The notes below the pieces were generated by a model. The model was not told where the DNA came from and made no database searches. It saw only the letters and a program-made list of their open reading frames with translations. Shown here one piece after another: positions 35,113-63,611 of a stretch of 64,000 nt of DNA. Every line of letters starts with the position of its first letter. Position 1 is the stretch's first letter. Origin of the DNA: Patescibacteria group bacterium (GTDB lineage: Bacteria > Patescibacteriota > Microgenomatia > UBA1400 > PJMF01); NCBI GenBank assembly GCA_041747555.1, contig JBGTEY010000007.1, positions 11,426-75,425 of the forward strand, written 5' to 3'. The position numbers were made by a program, and so were the translations under genes.

Positions 35113-35880
35113 ATGGCTCGTCCGAGTCAACCAACATCAGAATTTGATGAAAAAGTAATCCAGATCTCCCGTGTTTCAAAGAAAACCAAGGGTGGTAATA
35201 AGATTGGCTTTTCGGTACTCATGGTTGTGGGCGACAAAAAGGGTAACGTTGGCGTTGGGCTTGGAAAAGCCGGCGACGTGTTATCTGCCATCAAAAAAGG
35301 CGTCAAAAAAGCAAAGAAGAAAATGATTAAGGTTCCATTAAATGGAACAACAATCCCATTCCCAATCACTGCCAAAAAAGGTGCAGGCAGAGTCATGCTC
35401 AAGCCCGCTCCCAAAGGTTCTGGAGTTATTGCAGGTGGACCAGTTCGTGCAGTGGTAGAAGCTGCAGGCGTTAGAGACATTTCTAGCAAAATTCTTGGTT
35501 CAGAAAATCAAGCATCAAGTGTGTACGCAACTTTTGAAGCATTGCACCAAATTGAAAGAATCGTAACGCTTAAAGGTATCTCGCTCAAATCAATCGCAGA
35601 AACAGAAGCAGAAGAAGAAAAACGACTCGAAGCGATGCAAGAGAAGCACAAAAAGAGAGCTGAAGGTAAAGATCAAGACGCCAAGGACGCAAAGCAAGTC
35701 AAAGACGTCAAAACAAAAGACAGCAAAAAAACCAGTAAACAGGGAGCTGAAAAAAAGACTGCAAAAAATGAGTCAAAACCAGCACCGAAAGCTGAAAAGA
35801 AAACAGAAGCAAAAGTACCATCAGAAAAACCAGCAGCAAAAACTCCAGCCAAAAAAGAAACGACCAAAAAAGCAAAGTAA
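35113..35880 (+). CDS. rpsE: 30S ribosomal protein S5, with a ~95-aa Lys/Asp/Ala-rich C-terminal extension
   Basis: S5 core VIQISRVSKKTKGGNKIGFSVLMVVGDKKGNVGVGLGKA. The tail is AEEEKRLEAMQEKHKKRAEGKDQDAKDAKQVKDVKTKDSKK... rplO begins 6 nt later, so there is no rpmD. Confidence 0.95.
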   Translation: MARPSQPTSEFDEKVIQISRVSKKTKGGNKIGFSVLMVVGDKKGNVGVGLGKAGDVLSAIKKGVKKAKKKMIKVPLNGTTIPFPITAKKGAGRVMLKPAPKGSGVIAGGPVRAVVEAAGVRDISSKILGSENQASSVYATFEALHQIERIVTLKGISLKSIAETEAEEEKRLEAMQEKHKKRAEGKDQDAKDAKQVKDVKTKDSKKTSKQGAEKKTAKNESKPAPKAEKKTEAKVPSEKPAAKTPAKKETTKKAK

Positions 35881-35886
35881 GGAACC

Positions 35887-36327
35887 ATGTCATTACTACA
35901 CCGACTCAAATCCATCACTGATCGACAAAAAAAACGTGTCGGGCGTGGGTATGCATCTGGAAAAGGTGGCCATACTTCTGGTAAGGGAACCAAGGGTCAA
36001 AAATCACGACAAGGTGGAAGTATTCCATTATGGTTTGAAGGTGGACAATTGCCACTCATCAAACGAATGCCAATGCTGAGAGGTAAGGGATTGCTCAAGG
36101 CGGTTCGTCCAACAGCAGAAGTTTCACTGAAGAAACTTGAAAACATGGAAGCTGTCACAATCACGCTAGAAACACTCAAACTTGAAAAGGTCATTGATAA
36201 AAGATTTAAAAAGGCTAAAATAATTGGTCCAGGTCCTGTATCGAAGAAACTTACTATCAAAGGTCTGCCTGTTTCAGCCGGTGCTCGCGCGGAGATAGAA
36301 AAAGCAGGTGGTCAGATCGAGTCATAA
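35887..36327 (+). CDS. rplO: 50S ribosomal protein L15
   Basis: 146 aa. KKRVGRGYASGKGGHTSGKGTKGQKSR. Confidence 0.95.
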   Translation: MSLLHRLKSITDRQKKRVGRGYASGKGGHTSGKGTKGQKSRQGGSIPLWFEGGQLPLIKRMPMLRGKGLLKAVRPTAEVSLKKLENMEAVTITLETLKLEKVIDKRFKKAKIIGPGPVSKKLTIKGLPVSAGARAEIEKAGGQIES

Positions 36328-56672: not shown

Positions 56673-57842
56673 CTAGGGGGTAGGGCGTTCGTAATCGACT
56701 TCTCCGTGAATCAGGACTTCGATACCTGACGTCACGAAAAACTGATTATTTACACCGAGACAACCTTCAATAAAGCTGCAGTTGCCTCCCGCATTCGCGA
56801 GTTCCGTTGGGTTTAACTCACTGACACCATCTGTCATGTTCCACGTTGCGTGGGCCATGACGGCAGTAATTGCCTCGGGGAGGTGATCCCCATGGAAATA
56901 ATTGCCAGTGACAATGAAAGTGTTATCCAGGGTACCCGTAAATTCGGCCGAAGCGTAGCCCACATTTACGATGAGCAACGCGCAACCCAAGGGTTGATCT
57001 TCAGTAGTTACACAAGATCCCAGCCCGTCTAAGGACCAAGACCCTGTTACGAGCGTGTAATGCTCGCCCGCAACTACCAAATCACACTGGTCATTAGCCG
57101 CCCCACAGAATTGAGTTTGGTCCTGTGCGTAGTACATACCCCATTCGGCCGGAAAATCGGCTTCGGGGTTGTCTACGTCAGGGAACTCAACCCACAGGGG
57201 GGGATCCAGTGTGGGGAAGGCTGCCCAAGGGATTGAGCCTTGTCCGAGCATCTGGAGGGTTGCACCCTCGAAATACTCGACATACCAGCCGTTCACATCT
57301 GCTACCTGAGCGGCAGCAGGTAAACTGCTAGTTGTAACGTTTGTGTCGGTCGTGGTCGTGACTTTTACGCCATTCTCAACCTTCACCTCAGTTTCCAGAC
57401 CTCTCGCTTCCTCTACTTGATCCCGATACTCCTCAAGGGAGCTGGGAATACCACCGAGAATGCCGTTTGAGCTTTCAGTGGTTTCGGTCGAGGGTTGTGC
57501 GGGGGTTAGCGCAAGCGCCACTTGGTTTGAAACATCCTCTAAGAATTCCGTGTCCGTAATGATACGGGCGACGATCTCCTCAGTGTCAGCATCTTCACCG
57601 TCGGCACCTGCAACGCCTTGTGTACCGCGAGGGCCCTGAGGGCCTTGTGGGCCGGTTGTCGGCTCGATTTTCTCAAGCTCGGCAACCCTTTGGTACAAAT
57701 CATTAACTGCTACACGGTTTTCCGTGATTGCAGGGTTGGCCTCTGCCTGGTTTTCATTCCAGAACCACAGACCAACCATTGCCAGTACCAAGAAAAAAGA
57801 GAGAAGGGCGAAGCTAATCGCCAGGTTTACTTTTGCGTTCAT
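56673..57842 (-). CDS. Membrane-anchored protein with a short collagen-like (Gly-X-Y)7 stalk and a ~250-aa Cys-containing C-terminal globular domain
   Basis: Start at MNAKVNLAISFALLSFFLVLAMVGLWFW, with GGAGG 8 nt upstream. GPQGPQGPRGTQGVAGADGED. Confidence 0.55.
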   Translation of the reverse strand: MNAKVNLAISFALLSFFLVLAMVGLWFWNENQAEANPAITENRVAVNDLYQRVAELEKIEPTTGPQGPQGPRGTQGVAGADGEDADTEEIVARIITDTEFLEDVSNQVALALTPAQPSTETTESSNGILGGIPSSLEEYRDQVEEARGLETEVKVENGVKVTTTTDTNVTTSSLPAAAQVADVNGWYVEYFEGATLQMLGQGSIPWAAFPTLDPPLWVEFPDVDNPEADFPAEWGMYYAQDQTQFCGAANDQCDLVVAGEHYTLVTGSWSLDGLGSCVTTEDQPLGCALLIVNVGYASAEFTGTLDNTFIVTGNYFHGDHLPEAITAVMAHATWNMTDGVSELNPTELANAGGNCSFIEGCLGVNNQFFVTSGIEVLIHGEVDYERPTP

Positions 57843-58405
57843 TTTTTTGCCTCCTTGACAATTGATGAACATGGTCGCCGAGATCATGGTGGCGACCAAA
57901 GTTGACGTGCCGGATACCATCCGGCCATTTTTTCCTTCCGCGAAAACCGCGGATCGTCTAGCATCAAAGCGGGGCGGAAGGGGTACCAGACGTGCGATCG
58001 TTTGATCACACACCTAATGCCCCTTCCGCGAGGAGAACATGAACGTGCATTTACCCTTTTGTAATAAAAAACACTATAAATACATTCATCACTCGTAACT
58101 TAATACGCGTGATTCCCTGTAGCCTGTTAAAGATCGACTGTTTCGAACCGAAGTTCAATTCAGTCAATTTGTTTGTTTAAGCCGAAGCTTAAACGCTGCT
58201 CTGTCCCGTTTCGCCAAACATCGGCGCGATGCCGAGCTGGCAAGTGAGCTGAGCAGGGCAGTGGTTGTATCGCTCTTCAAAACTTACAACCACTGCTCTA
58301 CGCAGCTTGGTGTCGCTCTAAAATTCATGAAATGGGGTCGGGGTTTGAAGAGCGACTGACAGTTTTTTATTTAATGTACGTACTCATTGAGTACCACTAT
58401 GAATA

Positions 58406-58434
58406 ACTATATCACTGTATAACTAACTTGTCAA
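58406..58434 (-). promoter_or_regulatory. Sigma70 promoter on the minus strand (TTGACA-N17-TATAGT) within the shared CCCATAGTATTGACA motif
   Basis: Plus-strand ACTATA at 58406-58411 and TGTCAA at 58429-58434. It fires toward the collagen-like gene about 560 nt away. Confidence 0.45.
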
Positions 58435-58687
58435 TACTATGGGATGTAAAAATGGGTTATCCAGGCTAAATCAGTCTATTTTGCTTGGTTTATTGGTTGA
58501 TTTGTGGTGCTGGTTTGCCTGGGAAGGGAAACCAGAGTGGACCGGAGTTGAGTTAAGCCTTTTTTAGGGGCACAGGTGTTTTTAGGCACCTGCTCAAGCT
58601 CCGGTCCGGTGGGATCCTCGCCGTTACGACTTGCCTAGCGCGAGGCTAGGCTGGCGTGCGGGGGAGGAGTTCTGGTAAGTTGGGGAA

Positions 58688-59308
58688 TTAATCGCTTATC
58701 GTGATCTCGAAGGGGAAGCTTTGGCTACCAAGTGTCAGTAGTCCGTCAAAGCTTTTGGTACCTCCCGGGGTGTAGGAATACCAGTGACTCGTTTGTGCTG
58801 AGCCATTAGTAAATTCCACATCTGTTTCCGTTCCGTCTCCAAAAGAAACATTTCCCCACCCATTGGTGGTTGGGGAGCAGTTAAAATTGATGACGATATG
58901 GTTAACAGCTTGACCCTGAGAAGTGACGGTTGTGCAGTTGTTTATTGGGGGGGAGTCGTCAATCACAACTTTGTAGTGAAACGTGCTGTTTCCTACAGTA
59001 AAGAATGTGTTGTACTCCATGATACCACCAGGCGTGTAGCTGTAGTCATGGCTTGTCGTTCCGGGAGGAACGCTAAGCCCGGTGCCAGTACCGTCTCCAA
59101 AATCAAGGAAACCTTCAACATCCCCATCGCACTCGACGGTGAAATTGAAGCTGTTGATAGTCCCTTGTTTGACGACAGCAGTTGAGGTACAGCTGAGCCC
59201 ACCTACTGTTTCAGCTTGGGCTGTTTGAGTTCGAGTTGCGCCTGCAAGCAGTGCAATTAAACCCAAAAGTAGCACTAAAAATGCGATTTTTTTCACTATT
59301 TGTTTCAT
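58688..59308 (-). CDS. Secreted protein with two tandem PKD-like domains
   Basis: Signal peptide MKQIVKKIAFLVLLLGLIALLAGA. Repeat 1 FLDFGDGTGTGLSVPPGTTSHDYSYTPGGIMEYNTFFTV. Repeat 2 VSFGDGTETDVEFTNGSAQTSHWYSYTPGGTKSFDGLLTL. Both fit the PKD pattern FGDG ... H.Y ... G.Y. Confidence 0.65.
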   Translation of the reverse strand: MKQIVKKIAFLVLLLGLIALLAGATRTQTAQAETVGGLSCTSTAVVKQGTINSFNFTVECDGDVEGFLDFGDGTGTGLSVPPGTTSHDYSYTPGGIMEYNTFFTVGNSTFHYKVVIDDSPPINNCTTVTSQGQAVNHIVINFNCSPTTNGWGNVSFGDGTETDVEFTNGSAQTSHWYSYTPGGTKSFDGLLTLGSQSFPFEITISD

Positions 59309-59782
59309 TTTCTTACTTTTTTCCTTTTTCAGAATATTGTTGTCTTCTAATGAAACCCCAAGTATTGAACTTGAGTCAGGGAATCACACCCCGTCTGCCA
59401 AACGCCCGGCTAGGCCTTGAGTCATTTACACCTCCTTTTGGTTTTTCTGTAGACTCGTCATAAACTCCAGTTTCCTCAAGTACATGACGAGTCTACCGAA
59501 TTGCCGAAGGAAGTCCCTTTGATCAATCCTTTTTCCTTACCAGATGTTAAAGAGCGGCGATGCGTGTGCATCGCGTCCTACGCGCGCGACTCAACACCAG
59601 ATGCAATATCTGGGTGAGGGTTGCGAGCAGGCGGATGGGGACAACGTTTGTTGTTTGGTTGGGGAGATGGAGGCGAATTGGTTGTCTCCAACCGTGTGCT
59701 CACAGTGTATATAAGCGTATCACCTCTAGGTCTATAAGTCAATACTATGGGATGTTAAAGAGAAATGTCTTGACCAAAAAAA

Positions 59783-59812
59783 TGACCGCCCCCTCGAGAG
59801 AGGGCGGTCTGT
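59783..59812 (-). terminator. Bidirectional GC-rich terminator, a member of the repeated CCGCCCCC-core family
   Basis: AAAAAAATGACCGCCCCCtcgagagaGGGCGGTCtgtt. Confidence 0.65.
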
Positions 59813-59817
59813 TAGTT

Positions 59818-60162
59818 CTATCTGCGAATCACACCTCCTTTTGGTACCTTGTGTATGACCCAAGTACCAAATATGGTTGCAAGAGGTACGACCCCTGCTA
59901 TGCCACAAGAAAAAAGTCCCAGTCCAAGTAGTTGTAGCCCCATTATTAGTAGGTTGCTTGTACTGGCGGTCATCGCGGTCGTAGCGCTCAATCCCAGACC
60001 ATATGTCGCTGCGAAACCAGCAACGTACGATAGTATGAGAATAAACCACCACCTACCTCTTTTTTCTTTGGTAAAAATGGTGGCACAAACGAGCCACCAC
60101 ATCACCCCTGTCCAGAGCCCAAACCAATAAGGCCAGTTCTCTGGATTAAAAATTGATAGCAT
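59818..60162 (-). CDS. Small 3-TM membrane protein, 114 aa, in the WWF family shared with 60453..60725 and 62963..63235
   Basis: SD AAGGAGGT 7 nt upstream. MLSIFNPENWPYWFGLWTGVMWWLV ... RGRWWFILILSYVAG. Confidence 0.5.
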   Translation of the reverse strand: MLSIFNPENWPYWFGLWTGVMWWLVCATIFTKEKRGRWWFILILSYVAGFAATYGLGLSATTAMTASTSNLLIMGLQLLGLGLFSCGIAGVVPLATIFGTWVIHKVPKGGVIRR

Positions 60163-60420
60163 ATAGCTACCTCCTTCGAATAATCTCCTCCGAAGAGGGA
60201 AGCTCTACGCACCGTAATGCGCACAGCTCCCCTCTTCGAGAGATCGTTTGGAGGTCCAGAGGTGAAATGTTAAATAGCAGATAGATGATGCAAGCTCAAA
60301 CTCCACGACTTTTGACGCAAATGTCAGGATCGTTTTGTGCAAACTTCATCAGGATAATTATACAGGAAGTAGTATTAGAATGTACTATGGGATGTATTAA
60401 AAGTGTTTTTGAGCAAAAAA

Positions 60421-60464
60421 ATGGCCGCCCCCCTTGGGGAGCGGCCGTAGCTCTATTTTTTTTC
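60421..60464 (-). terminator. Bidirectional terminator, near-identical to the copy at 62926..62966
   Basis: AAAAAAATGGCCGCCCCCCttggGGAGCGGCCgtagctctaTTTTTTTT. Confidence 0.7.
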
Positions 60465-60725
60465 ACCTCTTCTCAGACTAAGAAACGCCACGCCAACAGA
60501 TATTACGATTGGCGTCAATTTTTGGACAATTTCCAGCCAGCCGCCGTCGGCGGCGGGTGAAACCTGTAAAATTGTGTTTTCAATGTTGATCATTGAAAAC
60601 CATAAAGATGTGGCAATTGCTACAAACCACCATTTAGAACTATTTTGTCGCAGGCCAATCTGTATGGTGATATAGACTAATGCCAGTGTACTAATTGCTG
60701 TCAAAAAATAAACTAAAAAAATCAT
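60453..60725 (-). CDS. Small 3-TM membrane protein, 90 aa, paralog of 62963..63235
   Basis: GGAGG then ATG at 60725. MIFLVYFLTAISTLALVY ... KWWFVAIATSLWF. The ORF-track N-extension to 60887 was rejected because it runs through the conserved leader. Confidence 0.5.
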   Translation of the reverse strand: MIFLVYFLTAISTLALVYITIQIGLRQNSSKWWFVAIATSLWFSMINIENTILQVSPAADGGWLEIVQKLTPIVISVGVAFLSLRRGEKK

Positions 60726-60990
60726 TTGTTTCCTCCATGAGAGTTTTATTCCCTTTCCTCGTGAAAGGGCCACCAAACACGATGATGCAGATACATCATG
60801 TGCAGCGTCCCTTTCTCGAGATGGAGGCGTGGTTTTATGAGCCTTAGTGAAAAGGTGTTTTAAAGAGCTAAATCGATAGATGCTCATTTATATGTAACAG
60901 TATCTGATGCGATTTCAGGCTGTTCCACACAAACTACATCAATTCTATTATGACATTAAACGGCCAAGTGTCAATACTATAGGACTATAA
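60726..60990 (-). repeat. Conserved promoter-plus-leader repeat, copy 1. It holds TTGACA-N16-CATAAT and a ~215-nt structured 5' UTR.
   Basis: About 85% identical to 63236..63492. Anti-SD CCUCCAU at plus 60821-60827 can pair with the SD region at 60732-60738. Alternative GAAAGGG/CCCUUUC pairings are possible. Confidence 0.55.
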
Positions 60991-61016
60991 GAGATATTTT
61001 GTGAAATGGCTCGATC

Positions 61017-62870
61017 TCAGGCCGCTACTGCCCCATACCCAATCGTCGACTCTAAACACCGCATCCAGTTGCAGTGCGGGTACGAAATTATTTTTTTATA
61101 AAATCCCCAATTTTCTGCAGCTTTAAAGAGTTTTGCGGTCTGCGAGTCATTTTCCAGCTCAAAACGGTGTACTCCAGAGGAAATCACTGCACTTGGTTCT
61201 TCAAGTAAGTGCATAAATAATTTAGCAAATGTCTTGAAATCATCAACGGGGTGCGAGCCCACAACAGGCACATACACCTCATTAAGAAACGTAAAGAAAC
61301 TATCTATTACCTGTTGTTCTGGAGCAAAGGTAAGCGTCGACTTATGGAGCGGCCGGTGACCCGTTAGCTCCCAGGCGGGGGAGGCTTCTCGCTTTGAAAG
61401 TCCAATAAATGATGCAAACGCGAGATGATTGGGGTTATTTTGATCAAATTGAGCTTGAGTGCGAGTCTCGATTGCTTCACGACCCAAATCATACACTGAT
61501 CGCGCATATATCATGCCTGTCCTTAACTGAAATTGCGTAGAAAACTCAAGTTGCGTCACGGTTGCTTCTGTTTTTCTGGTTATGTGGAGTAGTTCGTCGC
61601 CTTGTTCTTTAAATTTTTTTGCAGTTTGTAGGAGTGAGGCTGCTTGTTCGTCGCCATTTTTGGCCTTTTGATCAAGTAATTTTATAAATTTAGGATTACT
61701 GAATTGATCGAGCACAAAATGTTTGATGCCTTCTGGTGAATTGTATGTTTCTATTGTTTTTTGGAGCGCTAATTCTTCAATAAGTTCGCGCTTAGAACTG
61801 TATGAACTTGCGCCTTGTTGATAACTTATTTCTGTCACGTGTGACCAATATGCCGTTGTTCTTACAAACTGATATCCATCGACGCGTGTTTCTGAATCGG
61901 TCAGAAAATTCCTCAAGAATTCTGGATTTTGAAGGGAAGTAAGCAACGATTGATACTGTGTAGACTCGAGATCTTTTGCAATCTGCTCAGATTTAGCATT
62001 GAAGCGATAAAACTCGACTAAAAGATCAGGCATAGTGGTGAGAAATTCAGGAGCTTGCGCATGGATTTGCTTGAAGAGTGTACCCCAGCCTTGGGAGTTC
62101 ATATCTCTAAAATATGCAATAGCTTTTACAACTTCTATAAGTTCAATATCATGAATACCAATGGATTGGGGACCTTCGGCTCGGGGAAGGGAGTAATAAA
62201 CACCGTCTGAGATATGCCTGGTAGATGCCAGGAGTTCTGCAACTGCTTTTTCACCAATGAGAATTGTAGCCACACCCGTGCCAACTCGAGCAGTTTCTGC
62301 AACGACGTCAAGATTGTATGCCTTGATGGAGTTGGTATTTGCTCCGGAAATCTGGAATGCCATGAGGGCTGCTTCTGGTGGGATATCGGTCAGCGATGCA
62401 TATTGAAGAAAAAGTTCCATGAAAACCTGTAAATATTCTTGAAACTCTTGATCTTGCTCTGTTTGCGTTTCAGTTTGAGGGTAAAAATAGAGCGTAGCGA
62501 GGCGCGCAACTCTAGGGAGGAGGACAGCGATAGCTTTTTTTCTTTGTTCTGAAAGTGTTGTATTTTCTTCTAGTAGGCTAAGAAAATGGTGTTTCGCTTC
62601 TTCACTTATGATTTTAGATGGATCTAAGGGGGTGTATGAGTCTTTTTTAAGTCGTAAACGGCGTTCATTCATGGATTCGAGTACAGGGTCGATTTCAGCA
62701 TGATTAATCCCTAGCCGAGCGGTCGCGTAGGCAGCAGCACCTATTGCAGCGCGGCCAAACAGACCTCGTCTACTCACCTTAATTAGGTTGAGTGCGCGAC
62801 TAATGGGACCAAGTTGTTTATCTGGATGATCTGATGGTGGGGAGGAACTTGTTTCTACTGATGAATTCAT
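61017..62870 (-). CDS. Hypothetical 617-aa exported protein with a twin-arginine (Tat) signal
   Basis: VSRRGLFGRAAIGAAAYATARLG at aa 30-52. No other recognisable motifs. Confidence 0.5.
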   Translation of the reverse strand: MNSSVETSSSPPSDHPDKQLGPISRALNLIKVSRRGLFGRAAIGAAAYATARLGINHAEIDPVLESMNERRLRLKKDSYTPLDPSKIISEEAKHHFLSLLEENTTLSEQRKKAIAVLLPRVARLATLYFYPQTETQTEQDQEFQEYLQVFMELFLQYASLTDIPPEAALMAFQISGANTNSIKAYNLDVVAETARVGTGVATILIGEKAVAELLASTRHISDGVYYSLPRAEGPQSIGIHDIELIEVVKAIAYFRDMNSQGWGTLFKQIHAQAPEFLTTMPDLLVEFYRFNAKSEQIAKDLESTQYQSLLTSLQNPEFLRNFLTDSETRVDGYQFVRTTAYWSHVTEISYQQGASSYSSKRELIEELALQKTIETYNSPEGIKHFVLDQFSNPKFIKLLDQKAKNGDEQAASLLQTAKKFKEQGDELLHITRKTEATVTQLEFSTQFQLRTGMIYARSVYDLGREAIETRTQAQFDQNNPNHLAFASFIGLSKREASPAWELTGHRPLHKSTLTFAPEQQVIDSFFTFLNEVYVPVVGSHPVDDFKTFAKLFMHLLEEPSAVISSGVHRFELENDSQTAKLFKAAENWGFYKKIISYPHCNWMRCLESTIGYGAVAA

Positions 62871-62925
62871 TTAGCTAGTATGTCAGGGATTCAAGGAGAT
62901 GTAAATTATTGTGCGTTTTTGTCAA

Positions 62926-62966
62926 AAAAATGGCCGCCCCCCTTGGGGAGCGGCCTGTAGCTCTAT
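62926..62966 (-). terminator. Bidirectional terminator, copy of 60421..60464
   Basis: AAAAAAATGGCCGCCCCCCttggGGAGCGGCCtgtagctctaTTT. Confidence 0.7.
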
Positions 62967-63235
62967 TTATTATTACCTCCTATGAGTCCTAACAAGACTA
63001 TGAGTCCAGCCGCCGAAACAGGGGCCAAGACCATTACCAAATAAGCTTCCCAACCCTCGTTGGGAACTTGATTTGTTGTCAAAGCGACCCATTCTAGGGC
63101 CTCAACGGCAAGTAGATACAGTGCTACGGTGGTTGCCCACCATAGCAATCCGCCCGTTCGCGCAATCTTCCATGCGGAAAAATAGAGCCCTATAAGGGAG
63201 GTGACAGCTACAATGACCGAAAACATAAAAATCAT
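62963..63235 (-). CDS. Small 3-TM membrane protein, 90 aa, paralog of 60453..60725
   Basis: GGAGG then ATG at 63235. MIFMFSVIVAVTSLIGLY ... LLWWATTVALYLL. Same length as its paralog and the same Trp-Trp position. Confidence 0.5.
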   Translation of the reverse strand: MIFMFSVIVAVTSLIGLYFSAWKIARTGGLLWWATTVALYLLAVEALEWVALTTNQVPNEGWEAYLVMVLAPVSAAGLIVLLGLIGGNNK

Positions 63236-63492
63236 TTTTTTGCCTCCAAAGTGTATTCCTTTCTCAAGAAAGGGCCACTAAACACGAAAAAGAAGTACTC
63301 GTGCGCAGCGTCCCTTCCTCGAGATGGAGGCGTGGTTTTATGAGCCTTAGTGAGAAGGTGTTTTAAAGAGCAAATCGAAAGATGCATGTTAGTGTCTTAC
63401 AGTGTCTGATGCTATATCAGGCTGTCTAACACAAACTACATCTATTCTATTATGACATTAAACGGCCAAGTGTCAATACTATAAGGACTTAA
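63236..63492 (-). repeat. Conserved promoter-plus-leader repeat, copy 2
   Basis: TGTCAA at 63471-63476 and ATTATG at 63449-63454 on the plus strand. Anti-SD ATGGAGG at 63324-63330. Confidence 0.55.
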
Positions 63493-63542
63493 AATAGCGC
63501 AAGTAACATGTAAGCTACTTTCACATTGGTATCACACCAAAA

Positions 63543-63570
63543 ACCGCCCCCTAAGGAGCGGTTTGATTTG
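63543..63570 (-). terminator. Terminator downstream of 63612..63950
   Basis: AAAAACCGCCCCctaagGAGCGGTTTgatttg. Confidence 0.55.
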
Positions 63571-63611
63571 TAAATTTGGTACTCAAGCCGAAGGGCCAAG
63601 TAAAGTGAGGT

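Follow-up and report, generated by a model that had tools for sequence, protein, structure and literature searches.

The 64-kb window analysed here (64,000 nucleotides of contig JBGTEY010000007.1, positions 11,426 to 75,425, from the Patescibacteria group bacterium assembly GCA_041747555.1) is chromosomal, carrying rpoBC, ribosomal-protein operons, ABC-2 transporters, VanZ and a GT2 glycosyltransferase, and it contains a 6-kb island of orphan secreted and membrane proteins. Inside this island, and all within 3.7 kb, lie three cassettes on the minus strand, which we call cas1, cas2 and cas3 and whose 5' leaders are the subject of this work. Each cassette consists of a sigma-70-type promoter, a leader of 190-217 nucleotides (nt), a gene for a three-helix membrane protein of 90-114 amino acids (aa) and a GC-rich terminator (Table 1). 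A preliminary description of this DNA had recognised two cassettes of shared layout (promoter, leader, 90-aa gene, terminator), and these, cas1 and cas2, are borne out on the minus strand, with cas3 as an additional third copy. The cas1 and cas2 promoters (TTGACA-16-(TG)CATAAT) match the consensus at 11/12 positions, and both terminators have a 10-bp stem with 9 G-C pairs followed by T7. Taken together, the structure predictions and the covariation presented below support the view that selection acts on the fold of the leader as a structured RNA, and that this predicted fold sequesters the Shine-Dalgarno (SD) sequence of the downstream gene.

Table 1. Positions of the three cassettes and their parts within the window (anti-SD, segment pairing with the Shine-Dalgarno sequence; L, X, X' and X2, pyrimidine and purine blocks described in the text).
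Cassette	Feature	Position	Strand	Remarks
cas1	Whole cassette	60414-60990	minus	
cas1	Promoter	60947-60980	minus	ATAGTATTGAC motif; -35 TTGACA 60969-60974; 16-nt spacer; TG-extended -10 CATAAT 60947-60952
cas1	Leader	60726-60942	minus	217 nt; predicted transcription start ~60940-60942 to base before ATG
cas1	P1	60879-60940	minus	5'-terminal long hairpin, GAUGUAGUUUG...GCAUC
cas1	Linker	60828-60878	minus	mostly unpaired in both fold predictions; L segment CCUUUUC 60849-60855
cas1	Anti-SD CCUCCAU	60821-60827	minus	pairs with 60732-60738, stacked on P2 base
cas1	P2	60757-60821	minus	long rod-like hairpin; X CUCGAGAAAGGG 60809-60820; X' CCCUUUCACGAG 60758-60769
cas1	X2 repeat	60748-60757	minus	GAAAGGGAAU; can pair with X' when X is unavailable
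cas1	Shine-Dalgarno AUGGAGG	60732-60738	minus	6 nt before AUG; predicted unpaired probability 0.003-0.04 per nt
cas1	Coding sequence	60453-60725	minus	90 aa, three predicted helices, orphan
cas1	Intrinsic terminator	60414-60446	minus	GGCCGCUCCCCAAGGGGGGCGGCC + U7; stem 60446-60423
cas2	Whole cassette	62919-63492	minus	
cas2	Promoter	63449-63482	minus	motif, spacer and -10 as in cas1; -35 63471-63476, -10 63449-63454
cas2	Leader	63236-63444	minus	209 nt; predicted start ~63444
cas2	P1	63380-63443	minus	
cas2	Anti-SD	63324-63330	minus	
cas2	X	63312-63323	minus	
cas2	X'	63263-63274	minus	
cas2	Shine-Dalgarno UGGAGG	63243-63248	minus	predicted unpaired probability <=0.002
cas2	Coding sequence	62963-63235	minus	90 aa, three-helix membrane protein, orphan
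cas2	Intrinsic terminator	62923-62955	minus	stem-loop identical to cas1; stem 62955-62932
cas3	Whole cassette	59784-60392	minus	third copy, directly downstream of cas1
cas3	Promoter	60357-60392	minus	CCCATAGTA upstream motif; weak -35; TG-extended -10 TATAAT 60357-60362
cas3	Leader	60163-60352	minus	190 nt
cas3	P1	60286-60351	minus	
cas3	Anti-SD ACCUCC	60250-60255	minus	
cas3	P2 strands	60225-60245 and 60183-60204	minus	
cas3	Shine-Dalgarno AAGGAGGU	60169-60176	minus	
cas3	Coding sequence	59818-60162	minus	114 aa, three long predicted helices, orphan
cas3	Intrinsic terminator	59784-59809	minus	GACCGCCCUCUCUCGAGGGGGCGGUC + U7, ~70% like the cas1/cas2 terminator

When cas1 and cas2 are compared as DNA, blastn aligns promoter and leader at 84.6% identity over 272 nt (E=5e-76) and the 3' end at 90.9% over 66 nt, with no DNA similarity across the coding core, and sequence search found no further occurrence of this repeat in the rest of the window. 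Resolved by part, identity is 40/42 (95%) in the promoter, 167/215 in the leader (78% with gaps counted; 81% of ungapped columns), 10/12 in the first four codons, 94/241 in the coding core (39%, the background level), 14/21 in the last six codons and stop, and 43/44 (98%) in the terminator with its T-tract. The promoter spacer and the terminator stem-loop, loop included, are 100% identical, the unpaired linker of the leader is ~97-100% identical (a near-invariant block put at ~60 nt in the cas1/cas2 comparison), and all three cassettes keep the first 15 bases of the transcript (GATGnAGTTTG). The two proteins are both 90 aa long and share 22/91 positions (24%, pairwise E=3e-4), in agreement with the 20-25% given in the preliminary description, and its central observation of a leader more conserved than its own gene holds as well (78% against 39%). 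Its ~95% for the terminators becomes 98% for stem-loop and T-tract and 91% for the whole 66-nt 3' block. Identities at the three codon positions are 0.37/0.57/0.36, so that synonymous sites are saturated and the ratio of non-synonymous to synonymous rates (dN/dS) is not computable.

In both minimum free energy (MFE) and centroid predictions, all three leaders show the same succession of a 5'-terminal hairpin P1, a largely unpaired linker of ~30-50 nt and a long hairpin P2, and in each predicted fold the base of P2 is extended by an upstream CCUCC that pairs with the GGAGG of the SD. The MFE is -69.3 kcal/mol for cas1 (z -4.7), -73.5 kcal/mol for cas2 (z -6.9) and -76.3 kcal/mol for cas3 (z -5.5), each of the three folds having been predicted independently. 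P1 begins 2-3 nt from the predicted 5' end and carries a shared GAUGnAGUUUG...GCAUC in the three leaders, and the G-poor linker carries a shared GCUnUUUAA.ACA..UCAC. For four of the five GGAGG nucleotides the predicted probability of being unpaired is <=0.04 in every leader; one cas3 position stands out at 0.36. Two structural details of the preliminary description have to be revised: the anti-SD, which it took to be compensated between the copies, is CCUCCAU in both, and cas2 merely loses one terminal pair (UGGAGG against AUGGAGG); and the two hairpins that it saw keeping their structure through sequence change are one hairpin at the apex of the long stem, present in each of the two copies (CACAUGAUG...CAUCAUCGUG in cas1). 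In cas3 only, the start codon lies in the loop of a 6-bp hairpin GGUAGCUAUAUGCUAUC that is followed by AAUUUUUAAU (60155-60171, minus strand); this predicted hairpin may act as an additional, local lock on the start codon, or its likeness to a terminator may be due to chance.

A covariance model (R1) built from cas1 and cas2 only was searched, with filters off, against both strands of the entire window. It scored 253 bits for cas1 and 238 bits for cas2, and it recovered the cas3 leader exactly where it was expected and on the expected strand, with a match of full model length scoring 34.4 bits (E=1.8e-7). A sequence-only nhmmer profile of the same cas1/cas2 alignment did not detect cas3 at E<=10, and therefore the signal shared with cas3 is secondary structure and not primary sequence. 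Neither the two-sequence nor the three-sequence covariance model, again with filters off, found a fourth copy in the window. The strand of the transcript is fixed by conserved G-U pairs and by much weaker scores on the plus strand (28 vs 253 bits). In the three-way model-guided alignment 96.2% of pair cells hold standard pairs and 20/54 pairs have changed on both sides; moving the 3' partners by 1-3 columns as a slid control leaves 38-51% of cells paired with 2-7 double-changed pairs, and 0/500 shuffles match the observed values. By helix, helices 1 and 2 of P1 together hold 21 pairs, 5 of them changed on both sides across the three copies, helix 5 of P2 holds 23 pairs, 9 changed on both sides, with 98.5% of cells paired, and helix 4, the anti-SD:SD helix, is kept in all three leaders with 100% of cells paired. 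Since the three-way alignment leans towards the model, we also tested the MFE structure of one copy against the 39 substitutions of the other, and found 11 changed pairs kept and 4 broken, whereas permuting the same substitutions broke 14.4 pairs on average and never fewer than 5 in 5000 permutations (P<1/5000). In the cas1/cas2 consensus structure all 10 changed pairs are still paired, and differences occupy 11/108 paired columns vs 28/94 unpaired ones.

These numbers bear on one alternative, namely that the leaders have no RNA function, their similarity being the footprint of a recent duplication or gene conversion and their folds incidental. That promoter spacer and terminator loop are 100% identical, in positions that are not normally sequence-constrained, and that all copies sit so close together both fit this view, but the retention of every changed consensus pair, the threefold lower rate of change in stems than in loops, and cas3, which escapes the sequence profile yet folds alike, with 20 doubly changed pairs, ahead of a third membrane-protein gene, make it very unlikely. 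An explanation at the DNA level, in which the conserved block would serve a shared transcription factor as an operator array, or cassette exchange as homology arms, draws on the conservation of the first transcribed bases in the three copies and on ATAGTATTGAC, which has four exact copies, in the island only and on the minus strand only. The compensatory pattern includes G-U wobbles, which are meaningless in duplex DNA, and both the strand-specific covariance scores and the position relative to the SD indicate RNA; a promoter-proximal operator could coexist with the RNA and leaves 200 nt of structure unexplained, and we regard a purely DNA-level origin of the conservation as highly improbable. 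With respect to the preliminary description, its proposal of constraint on RNA structure is thus strengthened by covariation and by the third copy, and it is qualified in that we ascribe part of the cas1/cas2 identity to mosaic history (see below).

We also considered that the conserved block might be coding, as an N-terminal extension, an upstream open reading frame (ORF) or a leader peptide whose translation opens P2. In both cas1 and cas2 an ATG frame indeed runs through the block of highest conservation (SLKHL[F/L]TKAHKTTPPSR[E/G]RDAAH), the putative upstream peptides being 54 aa and 51 aa long, and in cas1 it is in frame with the gene while in cas2 it ends in ATGA over the start codon. 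However, neither ATG has an SD and the ATG lies inside the P1 stem, the shared frame shows 3 non-synonymous vs 2 synonymous changes, the peptides become unrelated after two indels while the RNA hairpin survives, the two ATGs stand in different registers, cas3 has no similar ORF, and a strong GGAGG at 6-7 nt marks the 90-aa starts. Control by an upstream ORF or leader peptide is accordingly rejected, a coding origin of the block has very little to recommend it, and a small conserved ORF, which the preliminary description had raised as a competing explanation, leaves its claim intact. The conserved 5' end UGAUGUAG (60938-60940 in cas1, 63440-63442 in cas2, minus strand) reads as AUG with an immediate stop at ~+4 of the predicted transcript, and in cas3 the 5' end reads AUGAAG and opens a 17-codon frame; because this AUG lies inside the P1 stem and is without an SD, the AUG-stop is probably incidental. 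The same GGAGG spacing suggests that the public gene calls at both cassettes are wrong: cas1 is annotated as 144 aa from the ATG at 60887, reading through the leader (60726-60887), and cas2 as 87 aa from Met4 (63227-63235). The 144-aa 'protein' would then be corrected to a 90-aa protein plus its translated leader. Beyond a basic-loop-WWF motif the cas3 protein has no significant similarity to those of cas1 and cas2, and AlphaFold2 models of the cas1 and cas3 proteins are low-confidence three-helix bundles (predicted local distance difference test, pLDDT, 62-66), too low for a fold search.

What the fold might do follows from where it places the SD. Structure prediction and covariation place the SD in a helix that stacks on a rod of at least 23 base pairs, so that the leader would act as a translational lock, and because the SD is engaged with the CCUCC at the P2 base a free 30S subunit should be unable to bind the start site directly. 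In addition, all three leaders are predicted to have the features of a standby-type messenger, with the ribosome-binding site (RBS) in stable structure and a 5'-end stem-loop and a single-stranded region upstream of it. As a 5' hairpin, an unpaired platform and a distant sequestered RBS together make up the layout of a ribosome-standby site, we propose that translation would be low and gated: 30S subunits, or a factor, might load on the linker, which in these models is a candidate ribosome-standby platform or factor-binding site, and would enter the start site when P2 breathes or opens. Opening could be triggered by the purine block X2, by the linker pyrimidine block L, by RNase III acting on the stem of 20-plus bp, or by a trans-acting RNA or protein, and P1 probably also shields the 5' end from decay. 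A search for a trans-acting partner of the linker with RNAduplex, on both strands of the window, returned only the self-antisense match.

Four alternating pyrimidine and purine blocks (L, X, X' and X2) are present in all three leaders, and they raise the question of a ligand-sensing riboswitch with a kinetic 1:2/3:4 vs 2:3 platform, in which L would pair with X, X' would then pair with X2, and the anti-SD helix would lose its stacking partner; translation would thereby be turned on whenever the upstream part is stabilised by an ion or small molecule. The preliminary description had noted the GAAAGGG/CCCUUUC/GAAAGGG triple and its mutually exclusive pairings; the triple is indeed present, and blocking X in silico lets the X':X2 pairing form in each of the three leaders. 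Over the three copies 94% of the L:X helix is paired, and one double change in it, U-A to C-G, separates cas1 from cas2; an 82-nt stretch has only four substitutions, and two of them belong to this change. The downstream genes encode small membrane proteins. Fluoride and guanidine riboswitches likewise precede small membrane-protein genes. On the other hand, with tracts of pyrimidines and purines facing each other, slid controls of L:X do almost as well (78-88%), the alternative state has a cost of +12.4 kcal/mol in cas1 (about +12 in cas1 and cas2) and +30 kcal/mol in cas3, and since the cas3 X':X2 hairpin itself contains the SD the logic of the switch is not conserved. With controls nearly as good, a cost of +12 to +30 kcal/mol and an SD that stays covered in cas3, a conserved ligand-driven switch is not established. 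The leaders consist of two rods and a linker, without a multi-helix junction or conserved pocket; no orthologues were found, and no gene function hints at a ligand. No Rfam family appears at even a weak score: Rfam 15 (4227 models, all curated riboswitches, leaders and thermometers among them) gave 0 matches at gathering thresholds over the whole window, and at E<=10 the region 60300-63600 gave noise only (for example the terminator hairpin against the TCV_Pr model), as did 57800-60300, so that the riboswitch shape seen in the preliminary description finds no family match for the leaders. Because the predicted fold is rod-like and its apical loops are variable, we consider a riboswitch rather unlikely. 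The attenuator that the preliminary description offered beside the riboswitch was rejected, because a terminator scan finds no terminator inside the cas1 and cas2 leaders, where GAAAGGGAAUAAAAC after P2 is not a U-tract; in cas3 the scan reports a weak 6-bp hairpin with AAUUUUU around the start codon.

A further possibility is that the cassettes resemble type I toxin-antitoxin systems, with toxic membrane proteins and a translationally inert primary transcript whose activation would be governed by an antitoxin RNA and/or by nucleolytic processing. In its favour, the cas genes are small, hydrophobic and orphan, each with its own promoter and terminator, and similar to the aapA1, hok, tisB and timP mRNAs (PMC6733600, PMC5416894, PMC6690012, PMC13000454) they have a long structured 5' untranslated region (UTR) with a CU-rich anti-SD over the SD. 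Moreover, several paralogues stand in tandem, and a close relative (contig L007, below) seems to have a different locus. The products, at 90, 90 and 114 aa with three helices, are large compared with a typical type I toxin of <60 aa (PMC11264685); there is no antisense or plus-strand promoter over the leaders, only divergent weak matches upstream of the transcription start; and self-antisense aside, the window holds no sequence complementary to the linker. Given the size of the products and the lack of a detected antitoxin in the window, we do not file the element as type I, and we regard this alternative, with its putative toxicity of the cas proteins, as doubtful.

Selection on structure is insufficient by itself to account for the high sequence identity between cas1 and cas2, because promoter spacer and terminator loop are 100% identical while cas3 shows that the leader fold tolerates almost complete sequence turnover. 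The contrast between leader and gene is best read as purifying selection on the fold combined with a mosaic history. In this history the cas1/cas2 coding cores would be old and saturated, and the flanks (from promoter to first codons, and from last codons to terminator) would have been homogenised by short-patch gene conversion, or else the cores exchanged between flanks; afterwards, with the structure under constraint, less critical portions of P1 and P2 may have gathered ~20% divergence. To judge by the identity profile, gene conversion probably contributes to the identity of the cas1/cas2 flanks. One can go further and imagine, in a lineage that is uncultivated and genome-reduced, an undescribed module in which a portable chassis of promoter, standby lock and terminator is kept uniform by conversion while highly divergent, small polytopic membrane proteins (type-I-like toxins, or surface or immunity factors specific to a strain) are exchanged or diversified, with a shared trans-acting RNA or protein that reads the linker and with two other long structured ATAGTATTGAC leaders in the same post-transcriptional regulon; we offer this as a tentative possibility, and one we would not expect to hold in full. 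An integron attC site, a diversity-generating retroelement and a mobile element were set aside, there being no terminal repeats, a chromosomal context and nothing phage-like; reverse transcriptase was not looked for.

Searches for relatives returned little outside the island itself. In a set of 5.8 billion clusters, the cas1 and cas3 proteins and the 617-aa neighbour each match nothing but themselves; searching 1.84 billion representatives with a cas1+cas2 profile recovered cas1 and cas2 only, plus two spurious transmembrane matches; and the cas proteins have no family match in Pfam, NCBIfam, PHROGs or PADLOC. For the RNA, a 23-base gapped pattern common to the three leaders gave 4 chance matches in GTDB species genomes, none confirmed by the covariance model, and 0 matches in JGI metagenomes and in IMG/VR, and the linker pattern also gave 0 matches in IMG/VR. 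The organism's RpoB has no cluster mate at 90% identity, and a route through synteny ended at the neighbouring DUF1295 protein, which has no relatives in metagenomes. Exact look-ups returned the same organism only (L005 and L008, 100% identical) or contigs too short for the leader (L006 and L007). The Logan contigs L005 (end = 63454) and L008 (start = 60443), both from SRR28170463, break inside the cas2 promoter repeat and the cas1 terminator repeat, respectively; short-read assemblies therefore come apart at these repeats, and which core stands first in the deposited contig depends on how the assembler handled the 272-nt repeat. L007 (ERZ27332908, another sample; 552-698 compared with 63466-63611 of the window) carries a 112-aa gene that is roughly 95% identical, with similarity lost right after that gene's terminator and a contig end, ...CCATAAGTCAGGACA...TTGATGA, loosely like the island promoter motif and the first bases of the leader. 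This point of divergence hints that the cassette island may be strain-variable.

On balance we hold with moderate confidence that cas1, cas2 and cas3 carry three paralogous translational-lock leaders without an Rfam match, each with its own promoter, standby-type gating and a mosaic history of the flanks. Several points weigh against this view. Only three sequences are available, all paralogues of one genome, and the three-way alignment was fitted to the model; as the three are related, the shuffle statistics are inflated. The leader is known from one genome, with no homologue found in the genome, metagenome and viral collections searched. The transcription start, and hence the '5'-terminal' position of P1, is read from a promoter match, and conversion is deduced from the identity pattern alone, in which identity on the 5' side falls gradually with no sharp tract boundary. 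Standby loading, dependence on ribosomal protein S1 and the trigger for opening we infer purely. Finally, prediction gives the lock (P2 plus anti-SD helix) a very high stability, with MFE values of -69 to -85 kcal/mol for the total leader, and breathing alone may therefore not suffice for initiation.

The surroundings of the cassettes show further features. The 11-mer ATAGTATTGAC, which spans the upstream element and the -35, has its exact copies at 58430-58440, 59738-59748, 60970-60980 and 63472-63482 and a variant at 60379-60392, against a chance expectation of 0.9 even with one mismatch allowed. Five island transcription units carry it or its variant at the -35 region, and may form one regulon, or ATAGTATTGAC may be the binding site of one factor. 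Upstream of a 206-aa secreted orphan protein lies a 5' region of ~400 nt (59309-59712, minus strand; z -5.2, no Rfam match) that holds CGCCUCCAUCUC, identical to the cas1/cas2 anti-SD block, a linker-like GCUCUUUAAC motif, and a 13-codon ORF (MTQGLAGRLADGV) with a strong AAGGAGGUG SD at ~59425. Another ~410 nt (57990-58400, minus strand) separate a near-consensus promoter, TTGACA-17-TATAGT (58434-58406), from a gene for a 446-aa collagen-like membrane protein; this stretch has z -7.0 and several near-perfect long hairpins, without a credible ORF or an Rfam match, and may be a long leader or an independent non-coding RNA. Between cas1 and cas2 a 617-aa orphan protein (61017-62870, minus strand) bears a twin-arginine-like signal, SRRGLFGRAAIGAAAYA; there is no terminator in the ~40 nt between its stop codon and the cas1 promoter, and read-through from this gene into cas1 is therefore possible. 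Elsewhere in the window, within the ribosomal genes at 35113-36327, L15 starts 7 nt after S5 with no L30 gene between them, an arrangement that fits, without proving, the CPR affiliation presumed in the preliminary description, and several ribosomal-protein genes have Lys/Ala-rich repeat tails (repeat families at 28.6, 35.8 and 43.3 kb).

If our reading is correct, the fold would represent an RNA family so far undescribed inside a known mechanistic kind, and a candidate cis-regulatory RNA, supported by covariation, in a lineage where almost nothing is known on gene regulation and in an island whose every protein is an orphan. Should the standby or type-I-like logic hold, the range of genes under such locks would widen to three-helix membrane proteins of 90-114 aa. 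More generally, a signal of the kind 'UTR more conserved than gene' can mix selection on RNA structure with concerted evolution of the flanks, which calls for caution in riboswitch mining.

Among known systems the closest likeness in layout is to the E. coli tisB/istR-1 pair, in which the tisB +42 mRNA has a 5' stem-loop, a single-stranded region and an RBS sequestered ~100 nt away, and has been shown experimentally to use an S1-dependent standby site (Romilly, Deindl & Wagner 2019, PMC6690012). Similar to tisB +42, the cas leaders combine a 5' stem-loop and a single-stranded region with a locked RBS at least ~100 nt downstream, and in both a small membrane-protein gene follows. They differ in that there is no sequence or Rfam relationship between them, that tisB encodes a 29-aa toxin whereas the proteins here have 90-114 aa and three helices, that neither an IstR-like RNA nor any sign of 5' processing was found in the window, and that the cas lock is a direct anti-SD:SD helix stacked on a rod of at least 23 bp. 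Type I toxin mRNAs as a rule have anti-SD locks with alternative pairings (PMC6733600, PMC5416894, PMC13000454). As in H. pylori aapA1/IsoA1 (PMC6733600, PMC5416894), hok/Sok (PMC9841398) and timP (PMC13000454), a CU-rich upstream segment sequesters the SD, purine and pyrimidine blocks offer alternative pairings, paralogues stand in tandem and the products are orphan and hydrophobic; the cas products are larger, no antitoxin RNA or 5'-3' long-distance interaction is known for the cas units, and we do not claim membership. With the SD-sequestering platforms of riboswitches the leaders share an anti-SD helix, which may be coupled to mutually exclusive helices, in the 5' UTR of membrane-protein genes, and differ in having no recognisable aptamer, no match among the 4227 Rfam models, and variable apical regions. 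As a locus, the arrangement recalls the Mycoplasma vlp/vsp genes, which stand in tandem with near-identical promoter, 5' region and first codons and with divergent bodies, a pattern usually ascribed to recombination and concerted evolution of the flanks. The vlp/vsp products are lipoproteins that undergo phase or size variation via repeats or inversions; the cas units have no such repeats, invertase or signal peptide, and their 5' region carries a covarying RNA fold.

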